Below, in pieces: positions 27,866 through 64,000 of a DNA stretch of 64,000 nt. Position numbers and translations under genes: made by a program. The DNA lies in the NCBI GenBank assembly GCA_964495255.1, contig CAZBVC010000005.1, positions 20,496 through 84,495 on the forward strand, given 5' to 3'. The stretch is from an uncultured Oscillospiraceae bacterium. GTDB lineage: Bacteria; Bacillota; Clostridia; Christensenellales; CAG-138. The notes beneath the pieces are model-generated. The model did not search any database. It was not told the DNA's origin and worked only from the letters and a program-made list of their open reading frames with translations. The first letter of the stretch is position 1; each line of letters opens with the position of its first letter.

Positions 27866-28528
27866 TTACGCCGCCACGTTATGCAGAAGCAGAATCGCCG
27901 CGCAGAGCGCATATGTTCCGATCAACATCAGCGCCATACTGATAGCCCATTTGCCGCCTTTGTCGAACCCGTAAAAGTCGTCCCAGCCCTTTTTTTCGAT
28001 CGCGTCGGAGCAGCCGCTCGCATCAACTTTGCCTTCCCCGATAAAAACCACCATAACAAGGTACAGCACGCCGTAGACAAGCGTCGGCAGCAGACCGAGC
28101 AGCGTCCGCGCCCATGGAAGCGGCGCGCTTTTTTCCAAAAAACAGAACGAAACGACGGCGAGCAGCGGCCCGATCAGGTGCAGAAACAGTCCTTCGTTTG
28201 CGAACATGACCCCATAACCGGAGGACGGCCCCAGAAAAACCACGACCGTCAGAAACGTGACCGCAACCGCGACGGTTCCGACATACTTGATCAAAGCGGC
28301 CCAATCGGGAAGCGCCGCGCCGCCGTGCGACAGGAGCAAAGCGTCGCAAACGACGATTGTCAGCGCCGCCGCGCCCGAAAGCAGGTTGGAAAGCGTCGTG
28401 AAATAGCGAAAGGCGTGCGCGCCGCTTCCGACGTCCTTTTTGTTTCGGCGCACGGTCTGCACAACGGCGACGGTCGTCCAACAGGCGATAACGGCGTTGC
28501 AGAGCAGCGAAAGAATGATTTTGACCAT
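27866..28528 (-). CDS. Integral membrane protein (possibly Pr6Pr/AIG1-like family)
   Basis: Track ORF 27866..29296 trimmed to ATG 28528 (AAGGAGGG RBS), 220 aa. About 6 TM segments and an FRYFTTLSNLL motif. Confidence 0.6.
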   Translation of the reverse strand: MVKIILSLLCNAVIACWTTVAVVQTVRRNKKDVGSGAHAFRYFTTLSNLLSGAAALTIVVCDALLLSHGGAALPDWAALIKYVGTVAVAVTFLTVVVFLGPSSGYGVMFANEGLFLHLIGPLLAVVSFCFLEKSAPLPWARTLLGLLPTLVYGVLYLVMVVFIGEGKVDASGCSDAIEKKGWDDFYGFDKGGKWAISMALMLIGTYALCAAILLLHNVAA

Positions 28529-28684
28529 GATACCCTCCTTGATGCGGAACTGCCGATTTTCTCTATTGTAACATGTTTTTCGCCGCAAATTTCCTTTTTT
28601 CGCGGCGAACGCCATTTGGTTATCAATCGATTTGCCCGATGTGGTATAATCGTCACGGCGCAACGCGCATAGGGGGAGAAACGC

Positions 28685-29392
28685 ATGTATCAATACTTGT
28701 TGTGGGACGTTGACGGTACGATTCTTGATTTTTTGGCGGCGGAAGCATACGCGATCCGCACGCTGTTTGGAAAGTTCGGGCTCGGCGTTTGCACCGATGA
28801 AATGGTGCGCGCCTATTCGCAGATCAACGTAGAATTCTGGCAAGCGCTCGAACGAAACGAAATGACCAAGACGGAGATTCTGGTTGGCAGATTTCGCGCG
28901 TTTTTCGAGCGATACGGTATCGACCCGACGCTGGCGGAGCCCTTCAACCATGCTTATCAAACCGCGTTGGGCGACCATATCGTGTTCATCAGGGATGCGG
29001 AGGAGACGCTGCGCGCCGAAAAAGGACGGTATACGCTCGCCGCCGTGACCAACGGAACCAAGGTAGCACAGACCAAGAAACTTGCGCGGTCGGGGCTGGA
29101 TCAAATCTTCGACGCGGTGTTTATCTCCGAGGACGTCGGCTTTGAAAAGCCCAATGCGGCGTATTTCGAGACGGTTTTTCGCAACCTGGGCGTTACGGAT
29201 AAGCGCAGCGTCCTTCTGATCGGGGACTCGCTCACCGGCGATATGCGGGGCGCCGCGAATATGGGGATAGACGCCTGCTGGTTCAACCCGAACCACGCCG
29301 TCAACGCGCCGAACGTGCCGATCACCTACGAGATCGACGATTTAAGCAAGCTCGCGGCGATTTTGGAGCGTGACGCCGCGCGCACGTCTTAA
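28685..29392 (+). CDS. HAD-IA hydrolase, YjjG-like nucleotidase family
   Basis: Motif I DVDGT at residues 8-12, TNG (motif II), and GDSLTGDMRGAANMG (motif IV region). Confidence 0.8.
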   Translation: MYQYLLWDVDGTILDFLAAEAYAIRTLFGKFGLGVCTDEMVRAYSQINVEFWQALERNEMTKTEILVGRFRAFFERYGIDPTLAEPFNHAYQTALGDHIVFIRDAEETLRAEKGRYTLAAVTNGTKVAQTKKLARSGLDQIFDAVFISEDVGFEKPNAAYFETVFRNLGVTDKRSVLLIGDSLTGDMRGAANMGIDACWFNPNHAVNAPNVPITYEIDDLSKLAAILERDAARTS

Positions 29393-29418: not shown

Positions 29419-29446
29419 CAGCGTGCTTGATGAATCGAACACGCTG
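29419..29446. terminator. Hairpin terminator shared by convergent genes
   Basis: CAGCGTG-14 nt-CACGCTG, followed by ccttttctcgtctttt on the plus strand and tttgggtttgttt on the minus strand. Confidence 0.55.
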
Positions 29447-29481: not shown

Positions 29482-32400
29482 CTACGGCGTGACGGTGATC
29501 GCGATCGTCTGCGTTGCGCCGCCGTCCTTGGACGCGCAGGTGAGGAGGATCGTCTTTTCGGCGGTTACGCGCTTTGTCGTGACGACGCCATAGCTCGATA
29601 CGCTCGCGTAGGGCAGATCCTGCGGACGCAAAGACCAGGTTACTGTTTTTGACGTTGCGTTCGCGGGCGCAAGCGAAGCGCGGATCGTGAGCTGCTTTCC
29701 GCCCGTTACCGTTGACAGACCGGTTGCGGACGTAAGCGTTATGTCGCTGACCTTTCGCACGATCGATATCTTCGTCGTTATGCTTTTCCCGCTGCCGTCC
29801 GACGCCTTTGCCGTAATCGTCACCGTACCCGTGCGATAGTTGCCGTAGCGGTCGAGTTGCGCCGTCACCACGCCGTTTGCGTCCACAACGGCGATTGTGC
29901 TGCTGCTGCTCGACCAAAGCCATGCTTGCAGCGCGGTTGTCGGCAGGCTTTGCGCCGCGAGCGCGAGCGTCGTTTCGTTCGCCGTGAGGTTCAGCGTGAG
30001 CGTTTTTCCGCTGACGTTTGCGCCGCCCGCCGTGATCTGTACTGCCGTCGTTGACGGCAGGATCGTGATCGCCTGCGTCGCGGTGAGCGCCTTATTGTCG
30101 TCGGATACGACCGTTACCGTCACCTGCCGCGGCGCCGTTACCGCTTTTGCCGTCAGCACGCCCGCCGCGCTGATCGACGCATACGGCGCGTCGCCCGTAT
30201 GTAAGCGCCACGCGACCTTTTGGTTCGTCGGGAGATAACTCCCGAAGTTGGGCAGCAGCGTCAGCTGTCCGCCGCCGCGCGTCGTGAACGTGTTTGTTTT
30301 GGAGCGAATGCCGATTTCCTTTGCGTGCGCGAGCACCGTTACCTTGAAGCTCGCCGCTTTGCCGCTGCCGTCCTTCGCCTTGGCGGTGATCGTTACCGTA
30401 CCCGCTTTGACAAGGTGCAGCGTTCCGTCCTGTTCCATATAGGCCGCGCCGCTCGTGCTCGTCGGGCTCCAAACAACGGCGGGGTTCGCATCGGACGGAT
30501 AGATCGCGGTTTCGAGCGAAACGGTGGGGGAGTCGTTTTTGTCGATGACCAAAGTCGTATTCTCGATCGGTTGACCGCTGCGCGTAACGGACAGGTTCTC
30601 GGCGATCGGGTATATCGTTACGTCCATGGTTCCGAATTTGCCGCTGCCGTCCTTCGCGGTGGCATACACGGTGATTGTGACGGGTGTCGTGACGGCTTTC
30701 TTTGCCGTGAGAACGCCTGTTGCGCTGATTGACGCGACCGACGCGTCGGACAGCTCCCATTTCACCGACTTGCTCGTCGCGTCGGCGGGCAGCACAGCCG
30801 CCTTGAACGTCAGCGTTTTGCCCGCGGATACCGCGCTGCCGCCCGACAGCGTTACGCTCTGCGCCATGGTCACGATTTTGAGCGTGATCGTCGCCGTGCG
30901 CCCGCTCGATGTTGCCGTAATCGTGACCGAGCCGTTCCGTTTCAACGTTACAAGCCCGTTTGCGTCAACCGCAGCGTAGACCGAGCTGCTTGATTTCCAT
31001 GTTGCGGCCGCGTTTTCGGCGGAACCGAGCATGCGTGCGGAAAGCTGCACGGCGCCTTCGCTGCGCGCGTGAACGAGCGTTTTCTTCGTTACGATCGAGC
31101 CAAGGTCGTCCAGTATGTTGAGCAGCGTGTCGCTGGCGGGCAGAATGCGAACGTCATAGTTCGCGTACGCGCCGCCGTTGTCCGCCGCTTTCGCGAGAAT
31201 CGTCACCGTGTGCGGCTCGTATACGGTCTTTGCCGTAACTCTGCCCGCGCTCGATACGCTCGCGAACGCCGCGTCGGTCGGGTCGGATAAGCTCCATTGG
31301 ATCGTTTTGTTCGTCGGCATATTGGTGTATGCGGTTTTGAGTTGCAGATACTTGCCCGAGCGAATCGCGTTTAGACTCGGATCGTTCGTAATCGTCAGCC
31401 CCGTCATGAGCGTGCCGATGACGAGCGTCGTCGATGCGGATTGACCGCTGCCGTCCTTCGCCGTCGCCGTGATCGTGACCTTGCCCGCTTTTTTCGGCGT
31501 AACGACGCCGCTTTGATCCACCGTTGCGATCAGCGAGCTGCTCGTTTTCCAGGTTACGGTTTGGAAGGCGTCGGCGGGCTGCGCTTCGGCGGCAAGCGAG
31601 ATTGACGCCGTGCCGAGCGCGACGGGGTGGGTAACGCCGCTCCACAGCGCGCCTGCGCTGCGAATAACCAGCCGTTGAACCGTCGGGCGCAGCGTGATTT
31701 CAACGCTGTCGCTTGCCGTCGGGTTTGCCTTGACCGTTGCCGTAACCGTGATCGTTGTGCTTTCGGGCACGGCGCGCGTGGCGAGCTTACCCGTGCTCGA
31801 AATCGACGCGTAAGGCAGGGCGTTTTCGCTCAGGCTCCAAACAAGCGTTTTATCCGTCAAGGCGGCGTTGGTCGTTACGTCGTTTGTCAGTTGCAGACTC
31901 GCGCCGCCGCGCAGCTCGGTCGTTGCAGCGGCGATGTTCACTGCCTGCGCGAGCTTTGCAAATTGCAGCTTGACCGTCGCGGTCTTGTTGCTGCCGTCTT
32001 TCGCCTTTGCCGTCAGCGTAACCGTGCCCGCCTTGCCCTTGAAGCCGCTTATCGTAATCGTGCCGTCGCCGTGATCGGTGCATGTCGCATACGCGTTTGA
32101 AAGGTCGCTGTCCGTCCAAACGCAGGCTTGCGCCGCATCGGCGGGGTACAGCTCCGCATCGAGCGTCAGCTCCGTTACGTTTGGGTCGTTCAGGTCGAGG
32201 CATATGGTTTTGCCCGTTTCGTAAGCCTCGCCGCGCTTGATGGATAGGCTGTCAACGAGCGGTACGATCGTGATCTCGTGCTCGGCGCTTTCGCAGTTGC
32301 CGTCCTTTGCGATCGCCTTAACGCGAACCACGGTCTCCTGCGTGACCGCCTTCGCCGTGAGCAATCCCGTGCTCGAAAGCGCGGCGCAGGAGGTGTATTC

Positions 32401-33125
32401 GCCGTCCATATACCACGTTACGCCGAGGTTGTTCGGCGCGTCGCCCGTAAACGACGCCGTGAGCTGCGTCTTTTTGCCCGACGTGAGCTTTCCGCCCGCG
32501 CCGAGCGCGTCGCCGACAGTGAGCCCCTGCGAGAGCTTGACCACGTTGATTTTGACCGTCGCGGTCTTGTTGGAGCCGTCGGTGGTCGCAGCGGTTATAT
32601 TCGCCGTTCCGGTGCGGAGCGCGATGAAACGCAGCTCGCCGAACGTTTGGTCGTAATAGACCGATGCGACGGCGGGGTTGCTCGATACGATCTTAAAATC
32701 GCCATATGTTGCGCTCGGCTGCGTCTCGACGCCCATGATCAGCGCGTGCGCGTTCCCGTCTCCATATGGGATCAGGTTGTCGGCGTCGTTCAGATCGATC
32801 GACATCACGGCGGGCGCGGGCTCGCCGTCTTCGTCGGTAAAGAACACGCGCAGTGCGAGCGGCAGAATGCGAATCACCTTTTTAACCTGCATGGCGCTGA
32901 CACTCGGCGCAGAGCCGACAACGACGATGCTCTGTTCCTCCGTTACCGCTTTTGCCGTCACGTTGCCCTTCGCGTCGATTGCGGCGTACCGTTCGCCGCC
33001 CGCCTCGATCGTCCATACCGAGGCCGCGTCCGATACGTCCGCGCCCTTGGAGCTCGTTAGCTGCATATGGATCGATTTACCGGCGGTCACATACCAATCT
33101 CCCTGTATGCTCAACGAAACCAAGC
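29482..33125 (-). repeat. C-terminal array of roughly 13-14 diverged Big_2-type Ig-like domain repeats (protein-level repeat)
   Basis: Units of about 90 aa recur from ...GLVSLSIQGDWYVTAGKSIHMQL... to the C-terminus (...TQTIAITVTP). The DNA copies are diverged and not identical. Confidence 0.7.
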
Positions 33126-36100
33126 CGATCGACGCCCCGAAGAGCGGGCCTCCGAACGTCAAATTGCCGTGCTGCCATTCGGTTTCCTGCCCGTCGGGAT
33201 AGCATACGATAAAGTCGTCCGCGTTGCCGTAGAAGGCGTAATCGCCGAGATCCGACGGAGGATTGCCGAGAAAGTTGGCGATTCGCAGCTTGATGCATCC
33301 GTAAAACGCATAATTCTGTATCGAATCGACGTTTCTGCCGAACGTAACCGTTTCGAGCTGACGATAGCCCCGAAACGCGCCTTCCGCAATCGTAACGACG
33401 GGCTTTTGCCTGATCGTATCGGGAATCACGAGGTCGCGTATCGAGCGGTTTGTGCTGCCCGAAATAACGACGCTTTCCCCATCGGCGGACAGGTAATAGA
33501 CGAACCCGCTGTCCTCCGACCAAACGGCATACAGCGTCAGGCTGTCGCCCTCGACGGCGGAGAGATCGCAGGTTTGACCTCCCTGATACAGCGCGGTTTC
33601 CGCATCCTCGCTCGTCGCCCAGCCTTCGAAGATCGAGTTTTCCTTATTCGGCAGCACCGCGCTGAGGCTTGCATTCGCGCGATCCAATACGACTTGATCT
33701 GCGGGAACGGAGTTTGCGCCGTCCGCGCTGTAACGAATCGTCAGGGATGCGCCCACGCCCGTATCTTCAAACGCGGTCAGCGGGTATCCCTTGAAAAGGC
33801 CCGTATTCGTCGGATCCCAGCTTGCCTTTTGGGAGGCGGGATAATAGACGTGAACCGAGCTGCCGTAGGAAAACGTGCTTCCGTCGGAGAACGTGGGCTT
33901 TTCCCCGAGGAAGGTAATCGAAGTAAGTGTGCCGATCGCGAATGCATTGCTGCCGATCGAACGCACCTGCGCGGGGATGACCAAGGACGCGAGCTGCATG
34001 TCGGAGAAAGCATACCAGCCGATCGACGTCAGGCTGTTTGGCAGATTCAGCTCTCGGATATACGGATTGCCCGTAAAGGCATAGTCCGAGATGCTCGTTA
34101 CGCCGTCGGGAACGGTAAACGAGGCGTCCTTTTTGCCGTTCGGATAGGCAAGAAGCGTCGTGCCGCTCTTGTTGTAAAGAACGCCGTCGATCGAGCGGTA
34201 ATTCTCGCTTTCGTCGCTCACGTTGATGCGTTCCAGCGCGCTCATATTGGCGAAAATACCCGAGCCGGATCGGTCGGCGATCATGCGCACGCAGCTCGGA
34301 ATCATGATCGATTTCACGGTGTCGTTGTCAAACGACGGGACGCCCGTAAAGCCGTGTTCCGTGACCGAGCAATCGGGGAAGGTTTCGCAAACGTGGGAAG
34401 AATCGCCGTCATGGAAACAGATATATCGGAAAGAACGCAGAGACGCGACCGTTTTCCCGTTGATTTGGGACGGGATGATCAGCATTTCGCCCGTGCCCGA
34501 ATAGTCGTCGATTACGATCTCGTCGTTCGCAAGCTCGTCCGCGTAGATCTTGTTCCAAATCTCCGTTTTCCCGCTGTAAGTGTGGTAGGACAAGCCGCCG
34601 ATGACGCCCGCGCCCGCTTCCGACACGGTGCGCGACCAAACGGGGGTCAACGCGATGAGATCGCAGCTGCAATAGATCGTGTCGCCCGGCTGATAATCGA
34701 CCTGTCCGTCGTCGTCAAGCGACCAGCCGACAAACGTATAGCCCGCGCGCACGGGCGTAAACGTGTCAAGCGTGACCGTCAGCCCGATCAGCCCTCCCGC
34801 GCTGTTGAAACGGGGATCCCACTCGCCGCTTCCGTCGTCATAGGTTCCGTCCGATTTGATTTGGTCGTACAGAATGGTGCAAAGATAGGGATCCAGCACC
34901 GCGTGCAGCACGAGGTCATGGTTCACGTCGGCCGGAATCGCACCGCCGGGATAATAGATCGTTCCGTCGTCCGTTTCCCAATACAGAAAATCGTGGTATT
35001 GCGAGAAGGGAATCAGGTCGGAAATTATTTGCGCCAAATTATGGTGCTTGAGCCCTGCCGGGGGGACGTTCGTACAACCGGGCGCATCAAAAGAAATGGA
35101 ATAGAAGGGGGATTCGATCGAAAACAGACCGTAGTCAATGCGCTTCCGTTCCGTGGTCATTTCATCCTTCGCATAGATCGTGATTTTGTAAAAGCAGCCC
35201 GACGCAAGGCTGGAAAGATCGACATATTGGTTCAATACGGACTCTATCGAAATCTCGTATCCGTCAACGGCAACGGTTTTCTCGAAGTCAGGGATTTTTA
35301 TGGTGCTGCATTCGATCAGGACAGTTACTTCCTTCACTTTATAGTTGGATTTGATCGTTCCGCTGATGGTGAACGGATCGCCCCAAAGCAGCATTTTACG
35401 AGGCAAAACGATATTTTCACCGCGCAGATCCGTCTGAACGGCTTTGAAAACAAGGTTGTCCGCGTAAACATACAGACCCGCAAGCGAGCCGCTCTTGATC
35501 TTGACCCAGGCGTTTCCCTTGCTGTTTGTAACGGAGCATTCGGTTTCGATGGTATCGCCCGCGAGGATTGTTACGCCGCGCTGCGTCGCAATGTCCGTCG
35601 CCGTGGAAAACGGCTCGGATCGAACGGCGACGCCGTTTCGCTTAAAGGTGTATGCCGTCGTATCGGTCGCGGTTTCGGTCCAAGCATATTCCACGTTGCC
35701 CGAAAAGATATATTTATTTTGAAACGCTTCGCTGCCCGCGATATGGTACCATGTGCTGCCAAGCCTGTTGACCAGCTTATAGTCGAATTTGACCGTTTGA
35801 CCCTTGTGTGTCGTAATGCCGTACTGCGTGGTCAGATTGGTGCTGTTTGTCGAGTAGGGGCGCGACCAAACCGACACGCTGTCCTTGGTGAGCTTATAAA
35901 CGCCGGCGACCGTGCGATCGATGCTTCCCGAATAGTCGTATTCCGCGCCGTCGCTCGACCGGCAGAAGCCGTCCGAGCCATAGTCGTGCACATGGTCGAT
36001 CGACGGGCTGATCCAAACATAGCATTTGTTTTGCGCATATGTCCTGCCGTTGTCGTTAATCCAATCGTTGATGGTCGATATGGAGGCTTCCGCAATGTGA

Positions 36101-37788
36101 ATAATGTTTTTTTGTGGGCTGTTGCATTCGATATAGCCTACGGTGTCTCCCTCAACCTTATAGATAAAGATCGAATGCGAGCCGGCGCGCGAGCCGTCGA
36201 TTCGGCAAATATCGCCGGGCTTGACGCGGAAGTCGGCGGCAACCTGATTGACGCGTTCCCAATCGCCTACGACCTTTCCGTTGTCTGTATTCGTATCTCT
36301 CGGAAGCGTGCCGAATACGATTGTCGCGATGTACATGGAAAAGCCGGCGCATTCGATGGCGTTCCCCATGTTCAAGCCTGTGAAATGATTTGACGTTCCC
36401 GATGACGAACCGGTCAGGCAGCTCGTATAATCGTTCGCCGTGATGCTGTCGATCATGGAGGCGACGCTGTAATTCGCGTTCCAAAAAACCTGCGGAATGT
36501 TATTGCTGCCACCAAGCTTGCGCCCCTGAATGATATGCGCGTAATAGGCTTCCACGGTTTTTGTGACCTGTTCGCAGGTCGGATGCGGGTCGGGCGTTAT
36601 CGTCAGGCTGACGCGCTGTATGGCGTCGTTCACCGTGAGCTCCAGCGCCGCGCTTGCCGCGCCTGCATCCTGCGCCGTCGCGGTTATGGTCACGCTGCCG
36701 CCGCAAAGAGGCGTTACGAGCCCGTTTTCATCAACCGTCGCGATTGATTCGTCGCTGCTCGTCCAGGCAAGAGTCTTGTTTGCCGCGTCCTCGGGCAGCA
36801 CGGCGGCGGTCAGTTGCAGCGTCTGAGTCAGATCGACGCAATCGGCGTCGTCGGGCGCAGACAGCGTGATCGACGAAACAAGGATGGGTTCTTCGGGGTC
36901 GTCGTCGCCCGCGTCGGTCGGTTTTGCTTTTAGCGTGAAGTAGGCGTATCGCGTAATCGGCTCCCCGCCCGCCGCGACGGAGACGGCGCAGCGATAGAGG
37001 TCGTTCACGCCGAGCATGTCGTTCTCCGCCGTGAGCTTCAGCGCCCGCTTGGCTGCCGTATCGTTTATCGTTGGATCAAGATCGACATACTTGTCTGCGT
37101 TCTCGCTTTGCGCATCATATCGCTGCCAAATAAAGGAAACGGCGCCGTTTGTTTCATAGGTCGGCTCGAGCTCGATCTCGTCGCCCGCCGCGCTCTCGAT
37201 CTTGTAATGCACCGCGCCGTCCGCATCGATCGTGTCGCCGTCGGCAAATACGGTAAATGCAAACGCGAGCGTTTCCGTTTCGGCGGGCTCGGGCGCGTTC
37301 CCCGCCGCAACCGTAACGGTCAGTTCGCCGTATGCGCCGCTTCCGTCAGCCGCCGTTGCGCGGATCTTTGCGCTTCCCGCAGAGAGCGCCGTCACAAGTC
37401 CGTTTTCGTCAACCGTTGCGACCGCCAAAGCATCGCTTGTCCAGACAACGGCGGGATTCGTGGCGTCGCTCGGCAGCGCAGCAGCATCCAGCCGCAGCGT
37501 GTCGCCCACGGTGAGCGACATAGAAGCGTTTTCCTCGTGCGTTCCCACCGTGACGGAGACAACCGCGACCGTTTCGAGCGGCAAATCCTTCGCATCGGAT
37601 GGGTCTGCGGACGATTCGGGTTCGTCCTGCGTTTCCGTTGCGGCGGGCAGGCTGCAATCGCCGTCGTGTCCGTCGGGAAGGGTACAGCCCTCCGTCTGCG
37701 TACAGGCTTCGCCTTCCGCCATCGCGGAAACGGGCAGCATCGATAATACGAATACGACCGCAAGGAACAAAGAAAGAACGCGTTTCAT
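29482..37788 (-). CDS. Giant secreted multidomain surface/adhesin-like protein (2768 aa): Big_2 Ig-like repeats, papain-like Cys/His domain, SH3b-like, Listeria-Bacteroides (Flg_new) repeats, BspA-type LRRs
   Basis: Track ORF trimmed to ATG 37788 (GGAGG RBS). Signal peptide MKRVLSLFLAVVFVLSMLPVSAMA. Many ...A-x-V-x-P-x-(D/N)A-x-N/D-K-x-(V/L)-x-W-x-S(S/D)... Big_2-type units. GW/W-ending Flg_new-like units (e.g. GYTFVGWSLDDDG...TPVW). LRR_5-like blocks (IPxxVxxIxxxAFxxC). Confidence 0.9.
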   Translation of the reverse strand: MKRVLSLFLAVVFVLSMLPVSAMAEGEACTQTEGCTLPDGHDGDCSLPAATETQDEPESSADPSDAKDLPLETVAVVSVTVGTHEENASMSLTVGDTLRLDAAALPSDATNPAVVWTSDALAVATVDENGLVTALSAGSAKIRATAADGSGAYGELTVTVAAGNAPEPAETETLAFAFTVFADGDTIDADGAVHYKIESAAGDEIELEPTYETNGAVSFIWQRYDAQSENADKYVDLDPTINDTAAKRALKLTAENDMLGVNDLYRCAVSVAAGGEPITRYAYFTLKAKPTDAGDDDPEEPILVSSITLSAPDDADCVDLTQTLQLTAAVLPEDAANKTLAWTSSDESIATVDENGLVTPLCGGSVTITATAQDAGAASAALELTVNDAIQRVSLTITPDPHPTCEQVTKTVEAYYAHIIQGRKLGGSNNIPQVFWNANYSVASMIDSITANDYTSCLTGSSSGTSNHFTGLNMGNAIECAGFSMYIATIVFGTLPRDTNTDNGKVVGDWERVNQVAADFRVKPGDICRIDGSRAGSHSIFIYKVEGDTVGYIECNSPQKNIIHIAEASISTINDWINDNGRTYAQNKCYVWISPSIDHVHDYGSDGFCRSSDGAEYDYSGSIDRTVAGVYKLTKDSVSVWSRPYSTNSTNLTTQYGITTHKGQTVKFDYKLVNRLGSTWYHIAGSEAFQNKYIFSGNVEYAWTETATDTTAYTFKRNGVAVRSEPFSTATDIATQRGVTILAGDTIETECSVTNSKGNAWVKIKSGSLAGLYVYADNLVFKAVQTDLRGENIVLPRKMLLWGDPFTISGTIKSNYKVKEVTVLIECSTIKIPDFEKTVAVDGYEISIESVLNQYVDLSSLASGCFYKITIYAKDEMTTERKRIDYGLFSIESPFYSISFDAPGCTNVPPAGLKHHNLAQIISDLIPFSQYHDFLYWETDDGTIYYPGGAIPADVNHDLVLHAVLDPYLCTILYDQIKSDGTYDDGSGEWDPRFNSAGGLIGLTVTLDTFTPVRAGYTFVGWSLDDDGQVDYQPGDTIYCSCDLIALTPVWSRTVSEAGAGVIGGLSYHTYSGKTEIWNKIYADELANDEIVIDDYSGTGEMLIIPSQINGKTVASLRSFRYICFHDGDSSHVCETFPDCSVTEHGFTGVPSFDNDTVKSIMIPSCVRMIADRSGSGIFANMSALERINVSDESENYRSIDGVLYNKSGTTLLAYPNGKKDASFTVPDGVTSISDYAFTGNPYIRELNLPNSLTSIGWYAFSDMQLASLVIPAQVRSIGSNAFAIGTLTSITFLGEKPTFSDGSTFSYGSSVHVYYPASQKASWDPTNTGLFKGYPLTAFEDTGVGASLTIRYSADGANSVPADQVVLDRANASLSAVLPNKENSIFEGWATSEDAETALYQGGQTCDLSAVEGDSLTLYAVWSEDSGFVYYLSADGESVVISGSTNRSIRDLVIPDTIRQKPVVTIAEGAFRGYRQLETVTFGRNVDSIQNYAFYGCIKLRIANFLGNPPSDLGDYAFYGNADDFIVCYPDGQETEWQHGNLTFGGPLFGASIGLVSLSIQGDWYVTAGKSIHMQLTSSKGADVSDAASVWTIEAGGERYAAIDAKGNVTAKAVTEEQSIVVVGSAPSVSAMQVKKVIRILPLALRVFFTDEDGEPAPAVMSIDLNDADNLIPYGDGNAHALIMGVETQPSATYGDFKIVSSNPAVASVYYDQTFGELRFIALRTGTANITAATTDGSNKTATVKINVVKLSQGLTVGDALGAGGKLTSGKKTQLTASFTGDAPNNLGVTWYMDGEYTSCAALSSTGLLTAKAVTQETVVRVKAIAKDGNCESAEHEITIVPLVDSLSIKRGEAYETGKTICLDLNDPNVTELTLDAELYPADAAQACVWTDSDLSNAYATCTDHGDGTITISGFKGKAGTVTLTAKAKDGSNKTATVKLQFAKLAQAVNIAAATTELRGGASLQLTNDVTTNAALTDKTLVWSLSENALPYASISSTGKLATRAVPESTTITVTATVKANPTASDSVEITLRPTVQRLVIRSAGALWSGVTHPVALGTASISLAAEAQPADAFQTVTWKTSSSLIATVDQSGVVTPKKAGKVTITATAKDGSGQSASTTLVIGTLMTGLTITNDPSLNAIRSGKYLQLKTAYTNMPTNKTIQWSLSDPTDAAFASVSSAGRVTAKTVYEPHTVTILAKAADNGGAYANYDVRILPASDTLLNILDDLGSIVTKKTLVHARSEGAVQLSARMLGSAENAAATWKSSSSVYAAVDANGLVTLKRNGSVTITATSSGRTATITLKIVTMAQSVTLSGGSAVSAGKTLTFKAAVLPADATSKSVKWELSDASVASISATGVLTAKKAVTTPVTITVYATAKDGSGKFGTMDVTIYPIAENLSVTRSGQPIENTTLVIDKNDSPTVSLETAIYPSDANPAVVWSPTSTSGAAYMEQDGTLHLVKAGTVTITAKAKDGSGKAASFKVTVLAHAKEIGIRSKTNTFTTRGGGQLTLLPNFGSYLPTNQKVAWRLHTGDAPYASISAAGVLTAKAVTAPRQVTVTVVSDDNKALTATQAITILPSTTAVQITAGGANVSGKTLTLNLTANETTLALAAQSLPTTALQAWLWSSSSSTIAVVDANGVVTAQLDRYGNYRTGTVTITAKASDGSGKSITTKISIVRKVSDITLTSATGLSTVTGGKQLTIRASLAPANATSKTVTWSLRPQDLPYASVSSYGVVTTKRVTAEKTILLTCASKDGGATQTIAITVTP

Positions 37789-37861
37789 CTGTTTGCCTCC
37801 AAAGAAAAATGCGACGTCTGCGGGGAGGGAGAACGATTGATCTCCACATTTATACATTAAT

Positions 37862-37889
37862 ATTATACATCACTTTTGGATTTTGTCTA
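37862..37889 (-). promoter_or_regulatory. Putative promoter of the giant-protein gene
   Basis: Minus strand: TAGACA (37889-37884), 16-nt spacer, TATAAT (37867-37862), about 70 nt upstream of the ATG. Confidence 0.5.
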
Positions 37890-61526: not shown

Positions 61527-62216
61527 TTAATACTTTCCGCCGAGCGCCGCTTCGGCTTCCTCACGCGTAATCTCGCCGGCGTTGCATCTCGCCATGATCT
61601 GTACGTCCTTATCGCGCAGCTTGTACATGCGCAGCACAATCAGCGAAATCGCCGAGCCGATGGTGGGCGTGACGGCATAAATCAGCCAGAGCTTGTCCGA
61701 TAAACCGGGAAGCTGCGCCGCGCCTTCGCCCGAAACAAAGCCTGCCAGCGCCAGCAGGAACGTGCCGAGCGCAGTCGCAATCGCGGTCATGAGCTTGACC
61801 GAGAAGGTTTGCAGCGAGAACGCGATGCCGGAGGCGTTGATGCCAGTCTTGTACATGCCGTATTCCGCACAGTCCGGCGTAAACATGAACATCAAAATGG
61901 TCGTAACGCCGAGCGGGATGGCTTTGAGGAACGTCAATACGAGGAACAGCGTAAGGTCTTTGTACCCGACGAAACAGATTACGACGCCGAGCACGGTCAT
62001 CACGACGGTAGACCAGAAGTACAGCAGAAATTTGTCGACCTTCTTGCAGATCTTCGGAATAAAGACGCCGAGGATAATCGCCGGAAGAAGGCTCGCCAAT
62101 GAAAGAATAGACTGCATGGATTCCGCGCCGAGGCAATGCCGCGCAAAGTACATGCCGAGCGTGGTGGAGAGGTTGGTGGAGTAGGAGATGAACAGGGACA
62201 GATAATAAAAAGGAGC
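61527..62216 (-). pseudogene. 5'-truncated glycoside-pentoside-hexuronide (GPH):cation symporter (C-terminal half only)
   Basis: About 230 aa, corresponding to the last six or so TM helices of a transporter that is normally about 450-470 aa. The ORF's apparent N-terminus (to 62246) runs into unrelated lower-GC sequence. Confidence 0.7.
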
Positions 62217-62236
62217 AGAGGGAATTTGTAAGCGCG

Positions 62237-62710
62237 ATGAAATCACTTACATCAGCGCTTGATCCTACGCGGCCTGTGGTGGATAACGACGGGTGGGAGC
62301 ATGTAAACAGCGATTTGTTGACAATTCACGACTATGCGTCGGACGAAGCGATCCTACAAAAGCGTTATTCGATGCTTGAACAAATCATATCAGCCCGACC
62401 TGGTGGGCGTGCTATCTATGCAGAAGGTGCTGCATATCATGGGGAACCAATTATCCTTTCAGAATTTGGCGGAATCTCCTTTGGGGAAAAATGTCAAGGA
62501 GCATGGGGCTATTCCGTCGCAAAAAATCAGGAGGACTTTTTATTGCGCTTAAAGGCGGTATTTCGCCCTATACAAGATTCTCCCGTGCTGCAAGGCTACT
62601 GCTATACGCAGTTTACAGACGTCGACCAGGAAACGAATGGGCTTCTGACTTATGATCGCAAACCGAAGGTACCGCTCGAAACAATTGCCTCTTTACTCTC
62701 GCATCAATAA
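62237..62710 (+). pseudogene. 5'-truncated GH2 family glycosidase fragment (C-terminal part of the catalytic barrel)
   Basis: LDPTRPVV..., ILSEFGG (nucleophile region) and YCYTQFTDVDQETNGLLTYDRKPK match the end of GH2 barrels (compare E. coli GUS). Only 157 aa. Homology seems to begin near 62222. Confidence 0.7.
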
Positions 62711-63057
62711 CCACAATCGCGTTTTGCTCGATTTGGAACGTTGCTGCATCAGAAAAAGCAGGTTCCGGAGTACTTTGCTCTGCAAATACGTAAGCGTAAA
62801 GCCAACGAACGTCTATACAGCCAGGCGTAATCTTAGACAATTGATGGTGGAAGATAGATGCCTCTAGATGGTTTGCGATATCTTATTTGGGATAGCCTCG
62901 TGAGTTAGCCCTGCAGAGCGTACTGGGGTGGGGGCTTTCCCAAACCTTCGTGCAGGCAAGCAAAAGTGTTCCTTATGTTTGCCGCCGCAACAAAGGATGG
63001 ATTCTTTTTGTTTTTGTATTCTTGTTGTAAGAATGACCGTGTGTTATAATCCTAATT

Positions 63058-63894
63058 ATGAAGCGCGAAGTCTATTGTAAGCACAAAAGCAGTTTTGATC
63101 TTAGCTTGGACTATTGTGGTACGGAGACATGCAGTCCTGATTTCTATATGCCGCCGCATATTCGTAATGAGTATCTAGTTCATTATGTTTTGGACGGGAG
63201 CGGAACGTTTACTACGCCGCAGAAAGAATATGTTTTACGCAAGGGCGACGTTTTTTTGATATATCCGGGCTGCCCAACCAGCTATCATACCAGCCCAACA
63301 GAGCCGCTTCGGTTTTCATGGTTCAGCTTTTCCGGGTTGCAGGCTTCTTCCGTCATTCCTTTTTTGGGTTTTACTCCTGATTCGTGTGTGCGACAGCAGG
63401 ATCGCCAATACTCGATTCATGCAGAAATTTTAACCTGTATCGATATAATGGACACCACCCCATTTTGCAGCTCGCTGCTTTTATTATCGCATCTATATAA
63501 ACTCTTTTATCTGCTTTCTGAATCCTGCCACACAATTTCCACCAAGCGCAGCATAGTACAAGAACACATCCAAAATGCAACAACCTATATACAACTCAAC
63601 TACATCAAACCAATAACGGTGAATGACATCGCGATATTTGTCGGACTTGAGCGGAGTTACTTTTCGAAAGTCTTCCGAAATTGTACAGGGATGACTGCGC
63701 AGCAATACTTGATGAAGACGCGAATCGAGCAAGCAAAGCTTCTTCTGAATCAAACTGCCTATTCCGTTAAGGAGATCGCATTCTACATCGGCTTCACTGA
63801 TGAATGCTACTTTTCCCGCGTATTCAAAAAAACAGTTGGGACATCGCCCAGCCGGTATCGTTCGCTAACCCCGCCTGTCGTAGGCACTGAATAA
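63058..63894 (+). CDS. AraC family transcriptional regulator (cupin sensor + HTH_18)
   Basis: The N-terminal cupin part has YLVHYVLDGSGTF...GDVFLIYPG. The C-terminal part has two HTH motifs (...YFSKVFRNCTGMTAQQY..., ...YFSRVFKKTVGTSPSRY). GC content is clearly lower than the rest of the window. Confidence 0.85.
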   Translation: MKREVYCKHKSSFDLSLDYCGTETCSPDFYMPPHIRNEYLVHYVLDGSGTFTTPQKEYVLRKGDVFLIYPGCPTSYHTSPTEPLRFSWFSFSGLQASSVIPFLGFTPDSCVRQQDRQYSIHAEILTCIDIMDTTPFCSSLLLLSHLYKLFYLLSESCHTISTKRSIVQEHIQNATTYIQLNYIKPITVNDIAIFVGLERSYFSKVFRNCTGMTAQQYLMKTRIEQAKLLLNQTAYSVKEIAFYIGFTDECYFSRVFKKTVGTSPSRYRSLTPPVVGTE

Positions 63895-64000
63895 TCAGGC
63901 GATAAGAGCGCGCATGAAACTTCTTTTTCAGTGCCATTTCAAACCCCGGTTGCAAGCTGTTTGAGTTGCAAAATGAACCTTGTATCTGTCGAGCCTCCAA

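Follow-up and report, generated by a model that had tools for sequence, protein, structure and literature searches.

Here we describe a giant protein encoded on the minus strand of a 64,000-nucleotide stretch of DNA (the window) from an uncultured Oscillospiraceae bacterium, placed by GTDB in the Christensenellales (contig CAZBVC010000005.1 of assembly GCA_964495255.1, positions 20,496 to 84,495). With slightly better than even confidence, we propose by analogy with characterized systems that this 2,768-residue product, of about 290 kDa, is exported by Sec to the cell surface and retained on the wall of its own cell non-covalently and not by sortase. The candidate anchor is a pair of SH3b/GW-like modules that follows a divergent CHAP-like hydrolase domain, in a part of the protein where curated domain databases return nothing. 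An earlier reading of the same DNA from its letters alone (the sequence-only reading) had described a secreted mosaic with no recognisable cell-wall anchor, and the order of modules that it gave proved essentially right in Pfam, profile and fold searches.

Canonical anchors were sought by motif, hydropathy and profile methods. An LPXTG scan of the whole protein, by regular expression and hydropathy, returned just an internal LPTTA at residue 2615, without a hydrophobic tail. The sole hydrophobic segment in the hydropathy scan is the signal peptide, residues 1–24, which reads MKRVLSLFLAVVFVLSMLPVSAMA and is followed by EGE; there is no C-terminal transmembrane helix, and the protein ends (...IAITVTP) within a Big_2 domain. 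The c-region of the signal peptide reads PVSAMA/EGEAC (the slash marks the cleavage site), where the lipobox [LVI][ASTVI][GAS]C is absent and the first cysteine falls at +5 past the A-x-A motif. Searches of Pfam with hmmscan, using the whole protein and nine sub-segments at E up to 5, found no SLH, CW_binding_1 (choline-binding), CW_binding_2, LysM or PG_binding_1 domain, and no sorting-signal, type IX secretion system (T9SS) or PEP-CTERM model of NCBIfam or Pfam matched in the protein. The claim that the protein lacks a recognisable anchor thus stands for covalent and canonical anchors, by motif, hydropathy, Pfam and NCBIfam alike. It does not stand for the SH3b/GW-like modules, which are candidates for wall binding.

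These modules lie within residues 395–900, a stretch of 506 residues without a match in Pfam, NCBIfam or a single-sequence search of the PDB, and with PHROGs matches all at E > 0.004. A word-indexed homologue search with this stretch returned no matches and missed even the identical protein in the collection, which reflects a limit of sensitivity or coverage and not uniqueness. HMMER, run exhaustively against 1.84 billion cluster representatives, recovered the protein itself and only 64 distant relatives (best E 5e-20). Local iteration over these relatives splits residues 395–900 into three modules, which we call A, B and C (Table 1). Papain-like and SH3b-like modules had been named by the sequence-only reading; neither has a single-sequence match, yet both assignments are backed by profile and fold searches.

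Module A has the signature YWN...QCxGFA...PGD...HSxFVYK...IECN. Its proposed catalytic residues are C480, H538 and E554/N556, and among 40 distant homologues the Cys is conserved in 93%, the His in 100%, the Glu (or Asp) in 95% and the Asn in 82%; G525-D526 is also conserved in this set. An AlphaFold model built on an alignment of homologues gives the module a predicted local distance difference test (pLDDT) score of about 85–93. In this model C480 opens a helix (residues 479–492), H538 begins a strand and E554/N556 sit on the next strand, which is the arrangement of the papain fold. The top Foldseek match in the PDB is Ly7917, a CHAP+SH3b lysin of a Streptococcus suis phage (E 1.5e-6), with both domains aligned. 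When the module A family profile was compared with PDB sequences, the Ly7917 entry 5d74 again came first (E 1.9e-4), followed more weakly by CHAP lysin L2, NlpC/P60, Spr and MepS, and the best viral fold matches (BFVD) are labeled “PlyB-like endolysin”, “CHAP domain protein”, “lysin” and “cell wall hydrolase”. Pfam CHAP (PF05257) gives nothing for residues 395–625 even at E up to 5, and homologues of module A reach it only at E 1e-3 to 3e-4, below its cut-off. Residue geometry together with fold and profile similarity place the domain in the CHAP/NlpC-P60 group at the superfamily level only. From the model and the conserved residues we infer a divergent CHAP/NlpC-P60-like hydrolase with an intact Cys-His-Glu(Asn) set, which is predicted to be active.

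Module B comprises the two SH3b/GW-like modules. The second aligns in register with the first and with 35 homologous repeats, and an invariant Trp is common to all. A profile of these 37 repeat copies, compared with PDB sequences, found Internalin B (InlB; E 7.4e-6) in three stretches, residues 376–430, 445–507 and 528–593, which are its modules GW1–3; next came the SH3b wall-binding domains 8b2f, 8b2s and 8b2h, with 7qeh (SlpA) also in the list. The single-domain model of module 1 has a pLDDT of 90, and its best fold match in the PDB is the teichoic-acid-binding domain of Lactobacillus SlpA (8alu; template-modeling score 0.65, root-mean-square deviation 2.3 Å), along with the related SlpX domain. 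Further matches are, in order, a Listeria autolysin (5jqc) and the wall-binding domains of phage 2638A endolysin (7aqh), Ly7917 (5d74) and PlySb (9kz1). The earlier view that the protein holds nothing able to bind the wall is not supported by these results, since residues 625–702 and 708–786 match the InlB GW profile and module 1 matches the folds of SH3b wall binders. The pair that follows the CHAP-like domain is thus predicted to be a cryptic anchoring domain, the kind of finding that the sequence-only reading had itself named as one that would refute it. It is a candidate anchor because GW/SH3b modules attach InlB, Ami, Auto and the staphylococcal autolysins non-covalently, to lipoteichoic acid or peptidoglycan.

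In the relatives, the module B repeat carries the signature WSRPYSxNST...NLWYKLSDGxWVYSGNV and occurs in arrays of up to nine copies. Ahead of each repeat these proteins have a Cys/His ‘knuckle’ linker, C-x-H-x-Y-x-GG-x-C-x2-C-x-YEYP. The linker ahead of module 1 in the present protein (residues 596–622; 35923-36003, minus strand) is degenerate and reads HVHDYGSDGFCRSSDGAEYDY. The knuckle linkers, as well as the Cys/His motif at residues 25–46, may be small linkers stabilised by metal or disulfides.

Past the SH3b-like pair lies module C, an Ig-like beta-sandwich that was absent from the sequence-only list. Its fold matches are FN3/Ig-like domains, and its homologues occur in other proteins as tandem copies beside CHAP domains. 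Because modules A, B and C also occur together as stand-alone secreted proteins of 380–490 residues (for example P0005, P0014 and P0023), the enzyme/SH3b/Ig-like unit appears to be an autonomous cassette grafted into the giant protein. Relatives combine the cassette modules with CHAP, Peptidase_M23, Peptidase_C39_2, SH3_3 and PG_binding_1 domains; a signal peptide is present in 54 of the 64, and LPXTG and a C-terminal transmembrane helix in none (0/64 for each). A profile search of an annotated collection added 14 unnamed proteins with module A, some of them fused to PG_binding_1, dockerin or ricin-lectin domains. Distant module A relatives with dockerin-like ends, PG_binding_1 or ricin-lectin are P0017, P0032, P0049, P0053, P0054, P0057, P0063, P0069 and P0075-P0077. 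The CHAP-like module has therefore been joined to several targeting or anchoring devices in other Clostridia. Judged by sequence and models, the domains described here fall outside the curated CHAP, SH3_3 and GW families, and the protein outside the HupY/LrrG equivalog; by fold, profile and catalytic residues the domains do belong to the matching superfamilies.

These results suggest the following arrangement. After Sec export the signal peptide would be cleaved, and the N-terminal third would form an endolysin-like cassette of hydrolase, SH3b/GW-like pair and Ig-like domain. The pair, possibly aided by the substrate groove of the hydrolase, would bind peptidoglycan or a teichoic-acid-like wall polymer after the manner of InlB, Listeria Ami and Auto, the staphylococcal Atl-type autolysin-adhesins and Lactobacillus SlpA. 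The remainder would face outward, binding ligands and acting as a spacer: three Flg_new domains, two BspA-type leucine-rich repeat (LRR) blocks and 13 Big_2 domains of alternating subtype, the last forming a stalk that we estimate to be roughly 45–50 nm long. GW modules tether InlB non-covalently to lipoteichoic acid, and retention is proportional to their copy number: InlB has three and is recovered both from cells and from the supernatant, whereas Ami has eight and is confined to cells (PMC4010754). Furthermore, a peptidoglycan stem fragment is a ligand of the Ly7917 SH3b domain (PMC11740692). Because the present protein has only two such modules, its attachment would probably be reversible, with part of the protein likely shed.

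Several points weigh against this arrangement. Export and orientation are predictions, as are wall binding, catalysis and localisation. Two modules are a low copy number for firm retention, and the cassette sits in the N-terminal third with the end of the Big_2 stalk free, the reverse of the usual adhesin layout, in which a stalk links a tip domain to the wall. Module 2 (residues 708–786) models poorly, at a pLDDT of 30–60, and the Foldseek E-values of module 1 are weak (0.018 or higher), as is expected for 78 residues; the list of its matches is functionally coherent. No curated Pfam model for CHAP, SH3_3 (PF08239) or GW detects the modules in hmmscan of the protein and its sub-segments, and when the repeat profile was aligned by hhalign with a true SH3_3 domain, from P0010, the match fell short of significance (E 0.43). 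The Gly-Trp dipeptide of GW modules is kept in neither copy, a Tyr standing instead (QNKYIF, AGLYVY); the relatives carry D-G-x-W where the dipeptide would sit. Finally, the envelope in question is that of an uncultured lineage, whose nearest relatives are Christensenellales metagenome-assembled genomes (MAGs) at no more than 73% identity in the neighboring fructose bisphosphatase (FBPase).

The N-terminal cassette with its free stalk end, the low number of modules and the endolysin-like folds keep alive a different explanation, which we consider unlikely while giving it real weight. Here the protein would be a released exoprotein, not kept on its producer, whose cassette is aimed at the walls of other cells. 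It would serve either as a giant enzyme for bacteriolysis or antagonism, or as an adhesin, inter-species or matrix, forming bridges between partner cells. Such release is consistent with the lack of a covalent anchor and with the presence of just two SH3b-like modules, since a low GW copy number leads to partial release (PMC4010754). The nearest folds are those of phage lysins, in which the SH3b domains recognise the wall of the cell under attack, and some relatives carry dockerin, ricin-lectin or PG_binding_1 domains in place of SH3-like arrays, so that the catalytic module occurs in several targeting contexts. However, no immunity-like or toxin-system gene is adjacent, the neighbors being a HAD hydrolase, an ABC transporter, FBPase and an AFOR-type oxidoreductase. 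Arrays of LRR_5, Flg_new and Big_2 typically belong to surface proteins that stay attached to the cell, and stand-alone versions of the cassette resemble ordinary secreted autolysins.

A bolder thought along these lines makes residues 395–900 a targeting head for the envelope of another organism, and not a self-wall anchor, within a giant contact adhesin or lysin; bolder still, the papain-fold domain would itself attach the protein to peptidoglycan by a covalent bond, with no sortase involved. We regard this as a long shot. If true, it would mean that an uncultured Christensenellales-like gut bacterium attaches to, or attacks, partner or competitor cells.

The two ends of the protein bear on a further explanation, in which it is retained by another route: through a partner surface or S-layer protein that binds the Big_2 array, through an uncleaved signal peptide serving as a membrane anchor, or through the N-terminal Cys/His motif. 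The Big_2 array reaches the very last residue, the usual place of anchors, a CCHC-like motif that is otherwise unexplained follows directly on the signal peptide, and some relatives carry dockerins, whose attachment depends on a partner protein. Set against this, the cleavage site of the signal peptide is a canonical A-x-A, Pfam and NCBIfam detect neither dockerin nor cohesin, SLH or any similar domain in the protein, and there is no candidate partner gene within the 64-kb window. Nor are we aware of a case in which Big_2 serves as a wall anchor. Altogether such a route appears improbable, and retention through the SH3b/GW-like pair is the explanation that we prefer.

The rest of the mosaic largely agrees with the sequence-only reading, which had listed the signal peptide and a Cys-rich segment, two N-terminal Big_2 domains, three Flg_new repeats, two BspA-type LRR blocks and about 13–14 Big_2 domains running to the very end. 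The Cys-rich stretch, EGEACTQTEGCTLPDGHDGDCS, lies immediately past the signal peptide, both being read directly from the sequence. Pfam recovers the Flg_new repeats as two adjoining copies and a third, weaker one, and both LRR blocks as LRR_5, the LRR_5 matches themselves spanning about residues 1222–1318 (71 bits) and 1449–1521 (38 bits). The earlier list did not include a beta-rich domain between the two N-terminal Big_2 domains, for which no match was found in Pfam, PHROGs or PDB sequences; by eye it looks Ig-like, with a W...YRC motif.

Big_2 has an overall E-value of 3.8e-71 for the whole protein in Pfam. The C-terminal copies were counted with an iterated hidden Markov model (HMM) of the protein's own copies, which gave 13, one of them degenerate (residues ~1650-1751). 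These domains strictly alternate between two subtypes, with the signatures ‘...SISSTGxLTAKAVT...’ and ‘...IATVDxNGVVT...GTVTITAKAxDGSGK’, and so form about 6.5 two-domain super-repeats. Identity is 29–47% within a subtype and about 15–30% between subtypes. The array therefore appears to be an old two-domain super-repeat, and neither a recent duplication nor a mis-assembly.

Table 1. Features of the 2,768-residue protein and its gene. Positions are those of the window; residue numbers count from the ATG at 37788.
Feature	Residues	Position	Strand	Basis
Coding sequence, 2,768 residues and stop codon		29482..37788	-	ORF list, translation
Sec signal peptide, A-x-A cleavage site SAMA/EG	1-24	37717..37788	-	Read from sequence
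Cys/His motif, C29-x5-C35-x5-H41-x3-C45	25-46	37651..37716	-	Read from sequence
Big_2 domain 1	80-162	37303..37551	-	Pfam E 3.7e-16; HMM from the protein's own copies
Beta-rich domain	164-307	36868..37299	-	
Big_2 domain 2	308-388	36625..36867	-	Pfam; HMM from the protein's own copies
Module A, divergent CHAP/NlpC-P60-like cysteine hydrolase domain (predicted)	~400-595	36004..36591	-	Conservation, AlphaFold model, Foldseek, profiles
Module B, SH3b/GW-like module 1	625-702	35683..35916	-	Profile and single-domain model
Module B, SH3b/GW-like module 2, more divergent	708-786	35431..35667	-	Alignment with module 1 and homologous repeats
Module C, Ig-like beta-sandwich	795-895	35104..35406	-	Model, pLDDT ~85-95
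Two Flg_new (Listeria-Bacteroides / InlB B-repeat) domains	~897-1052	34633..35100	-	Pfam E 1.2e-9, two stretches; TIGR02543
BspA-type LRR_5 block 1	~1090-1320	33829..34521	-	Pfam LRR_5 E 9.9e-20, 71 bits
Third, weaker Flg_new domain	~1350-1423	33520..33741	-	Pfam E 3.1e-5, 24.5 bits, slightly below the cut-off of 27
BspA-type LRR_5 block 2	~1428-1545	33154..33507	-	Pfam LRR_5 E 2e-9, 37.9 bits
Array of 13 Big_2 domains, reaching the last residue	1558-2768	29485..33117	-	HMM from the protein's own copies
Ribosome-binding site GGAGG, 7 nt ahead of ATG 37788		37796..37800	-	Read from sequence
σ70-like promoter (candidate), TAGACA-16 nt-TATAAT		37862..37889	-	11/12 consensus matches
Hairpin with T-runs on both strands, candidate bidirectional terminator		29419-29446	both	Reading and folding of sequence

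Two start codons are available to the gene. One uninterrupted frame on the minus strand in the six-frame list of open reading frames (ORFs) spans 29482..37857 and has 2,791 codons counted from the first in-frame ATG, at 37857 (37855-37857). This ATG is without a ribosome-binding site and is the one used by gene callers in public assemblies, which give a product of 2,791 residues. The downstream ATG at 37788 follows a GGAGG and yields exactly the 2,768 residues of the sequence-only reading. Since the -10 box ends 5 nt ahead of the upstream ATG, the transcript probably begins at or after that codon, and the start at 37788 seems to us the more credible of the two. The promoter and bidirectional terminator that had been attributed to the gene are plausible by consensus. 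A promoter scan of the region gave 3 sites against 0.4 expected from shuffles. The hairpin sits in the 89-nt gap between the gene and the converging HAD-hydrolase gene, with a fold of −25.3 kcal/mol (z −2.2) on the minus strand, that of the gene, and a weaker one on the plus strand (z −1.1); the consensus terminator scan did not pick it up because of its long loop.

A frame of this length in repetitive DNA might be an artefact, whether an assembly chimera across the Big_2 repeats, a fused pseudogene or a chance ORF. The protein is indeed repetitive, and the DNA is 58–61% G+C and also holds a 1,108-codon ORF, 33067..36393, antisense within the gene. We looked for the frame in independent assemblies, which were reached through look-ups of the products of neighboring genes, interruption there being a possibility that the earlier reading had raised. 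The 8,376-nt frame is uninterrupted in the Logan metagenome assemblies SRR8925823 and SRR29243445, with 1 nt difference in each, and the protein encoded by an NCBI contig of 84,880 bp is identical. In all three assemblies, each independent, the 8.3-kb ORF is thus whole and differs by 1 nt at most, and four further, shorter metagenome contigs from other samples have identical 3' parts of the gene. Besides the two Logan samples, the gene is carried by ERR13731071, ERR13731087, ERR4678636 and ERZ15185968. Moreover, the Big_2 repeats are just 15–47% identical at the protein level and therefore too diverged to mis-assemble, and Pfam E-values on the minus strand reach down to 4e-71. An artefact is effectively refuted. 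The antisense ORF (33067-36393, plus strand) is most likely a shadow of an Ala/Thr/Gly/Val-rich coding frame in DNA of this G+C content; the AT skew falls to −0.26 over 30–32 kb.

The window is chromosomal, with genes for sugar kinases and isomerases, ABC transporters, alanine racemase, RNase E/G, a GH3 glycosidase and a Firmicute-type FBPase. Its 64 kb include no gene for a sortase, an S-layer or a secretion system, and none of phage type. An origin on a phage or in a defence island was considered and dropped, the neighbors being housekeeping and sugar-metabolism genes. Among GTDB species representatives, the nearest matches to the neighboring FBPase come from Christensenellales/Christensenellaceae MAGs at 70–73% identity. 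A relative of the large gene lies nearby in 0 of 80 genomes that carry this FBPase, at identities of up to 73%, the source species not being among the GTDB representatives. The 90% cluster of the protein has three members, and the gene appears to be lineage-specific.

Two further features of the window were recorded. A 476-codon ORF (27866-29296, minus strand) overlaps the HAD-hydrolase gene on the opposite strand; public gene calls keep just its last 220 codons (27866-28528), which have a weak match to a Pr6Pr-family membrane protein. The right end of the window (62001-64000) has a G+C content of 0.46, against 0.54–0.62 elsewhere, and this segment covers an AraC-family regulator gene (63058-63894) and the part beside a truncated-looking MFS_2 transporter ORF (61527-62246).

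The significance of these findings is modest: the architecture is unique and its three central families are uncatalogued, but the underlying principles are familiar and the kind of system is already known. They do indicate that a large, seemingly ‘anchorless’ protein of a poorly studied lineage of gut Clostridia can hide a wall-binding cassette from domain databases. Surfaceome predictions that rest on LPXTG, SLH, CWB and LysM signatures would misclassify such proteins as released. Domain libraries could gain three small families that travel together, namely the CHAP-like hydrolase, the GW-related SH3b repeat and the Ig-like companion domain. The protein itself, from an uncultured lineage of the human or animal gut, is a candidate adhesin or autolysin, and current understanding is not overturned.

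Among known systems, InlB of Listeria monocytogenes (PDB 1m9s) offers a close parallel. It too is secreted without LPXTG and combines LRRs, Flg_new (B-repeat) domains and SH3-like wall-association modules, and the SH3b-like profile from the present repeats matches all three of its GW modules. In contrast, InlB has only 630 residues, classical internalin LRRs and not the BspA-type LRR_5, and GW modules placed at the C-terminus; it has no catalytic domain and no Big_2 array, and it carries three modules against two in the present protein, where the GW dipeptide is not conserved. The GW/SH3b autolysin-adhesins (Listeria Ami, Auto and IspC; staphylococcal Atl, AtlE and Aae) share with the present protein a peptidoglycan-hydrolase domain joined to SH3-like repeats. 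Staphylococcal Atl, AtlE and Aae have this same layout of a hydrolase with wall-attaching SH3-like repeats, and play a secondary role as adhesins. In GW autolysins, the SH3-like repeats attach the enzyme non-covalently to the wall, again with a secondary adhesin role (PMC4010754). Unlike the present protein, these autolysin-adhesins use amidase_2 or glucosaminidase domains, are far smaller and lack an LRR_5/Flg_new/Big_2 extension.

The CHAP+SH3b endolysins (Ly7917, PDB 5d74/5d76, and PlyB-like lysins) give the best fold and profile matches to residues 395–700, in the same order of hydrolase and then SH3b. They are just 11–19% identical to the present protein, however, and are proteins of ~250 residues without a signal peptide, whereas the present gene is chromosomal, amid housekeeping genes and outside any prophage. 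Lactobacillus SlpA (PDB 8alu, 7qfg, 7qeh) provides the top structural match of module 1 through its teichoic-acid-binding SH3b-like domain. Its identity is only 16–17%, and it is a self-assembling S-layer protein, whereas the present protein has no S-layer assembly domains.

Blocks of LRR_5 together with Big_2 are shared with BspA-type LRR proteins, such as Tannerella forsythia BspA and streptococcal HupY/LrrG. The HupY/LrrG equivalog model NF047961 scored 45.9 bits against a cut-off of 1,250, with just 67 LRR residues aligned. BspA-type LRR proteins are anchored by a T9SS C-terminal domain or by LPXTG, both of which are absent here. Taken together, the protein most resembles InlB and the GW/SH3b-anchored autolysin-adhesins in function, and the CHAP+SH3b endolysins and BspA-type LRR/Big_2 proteins in its parts.

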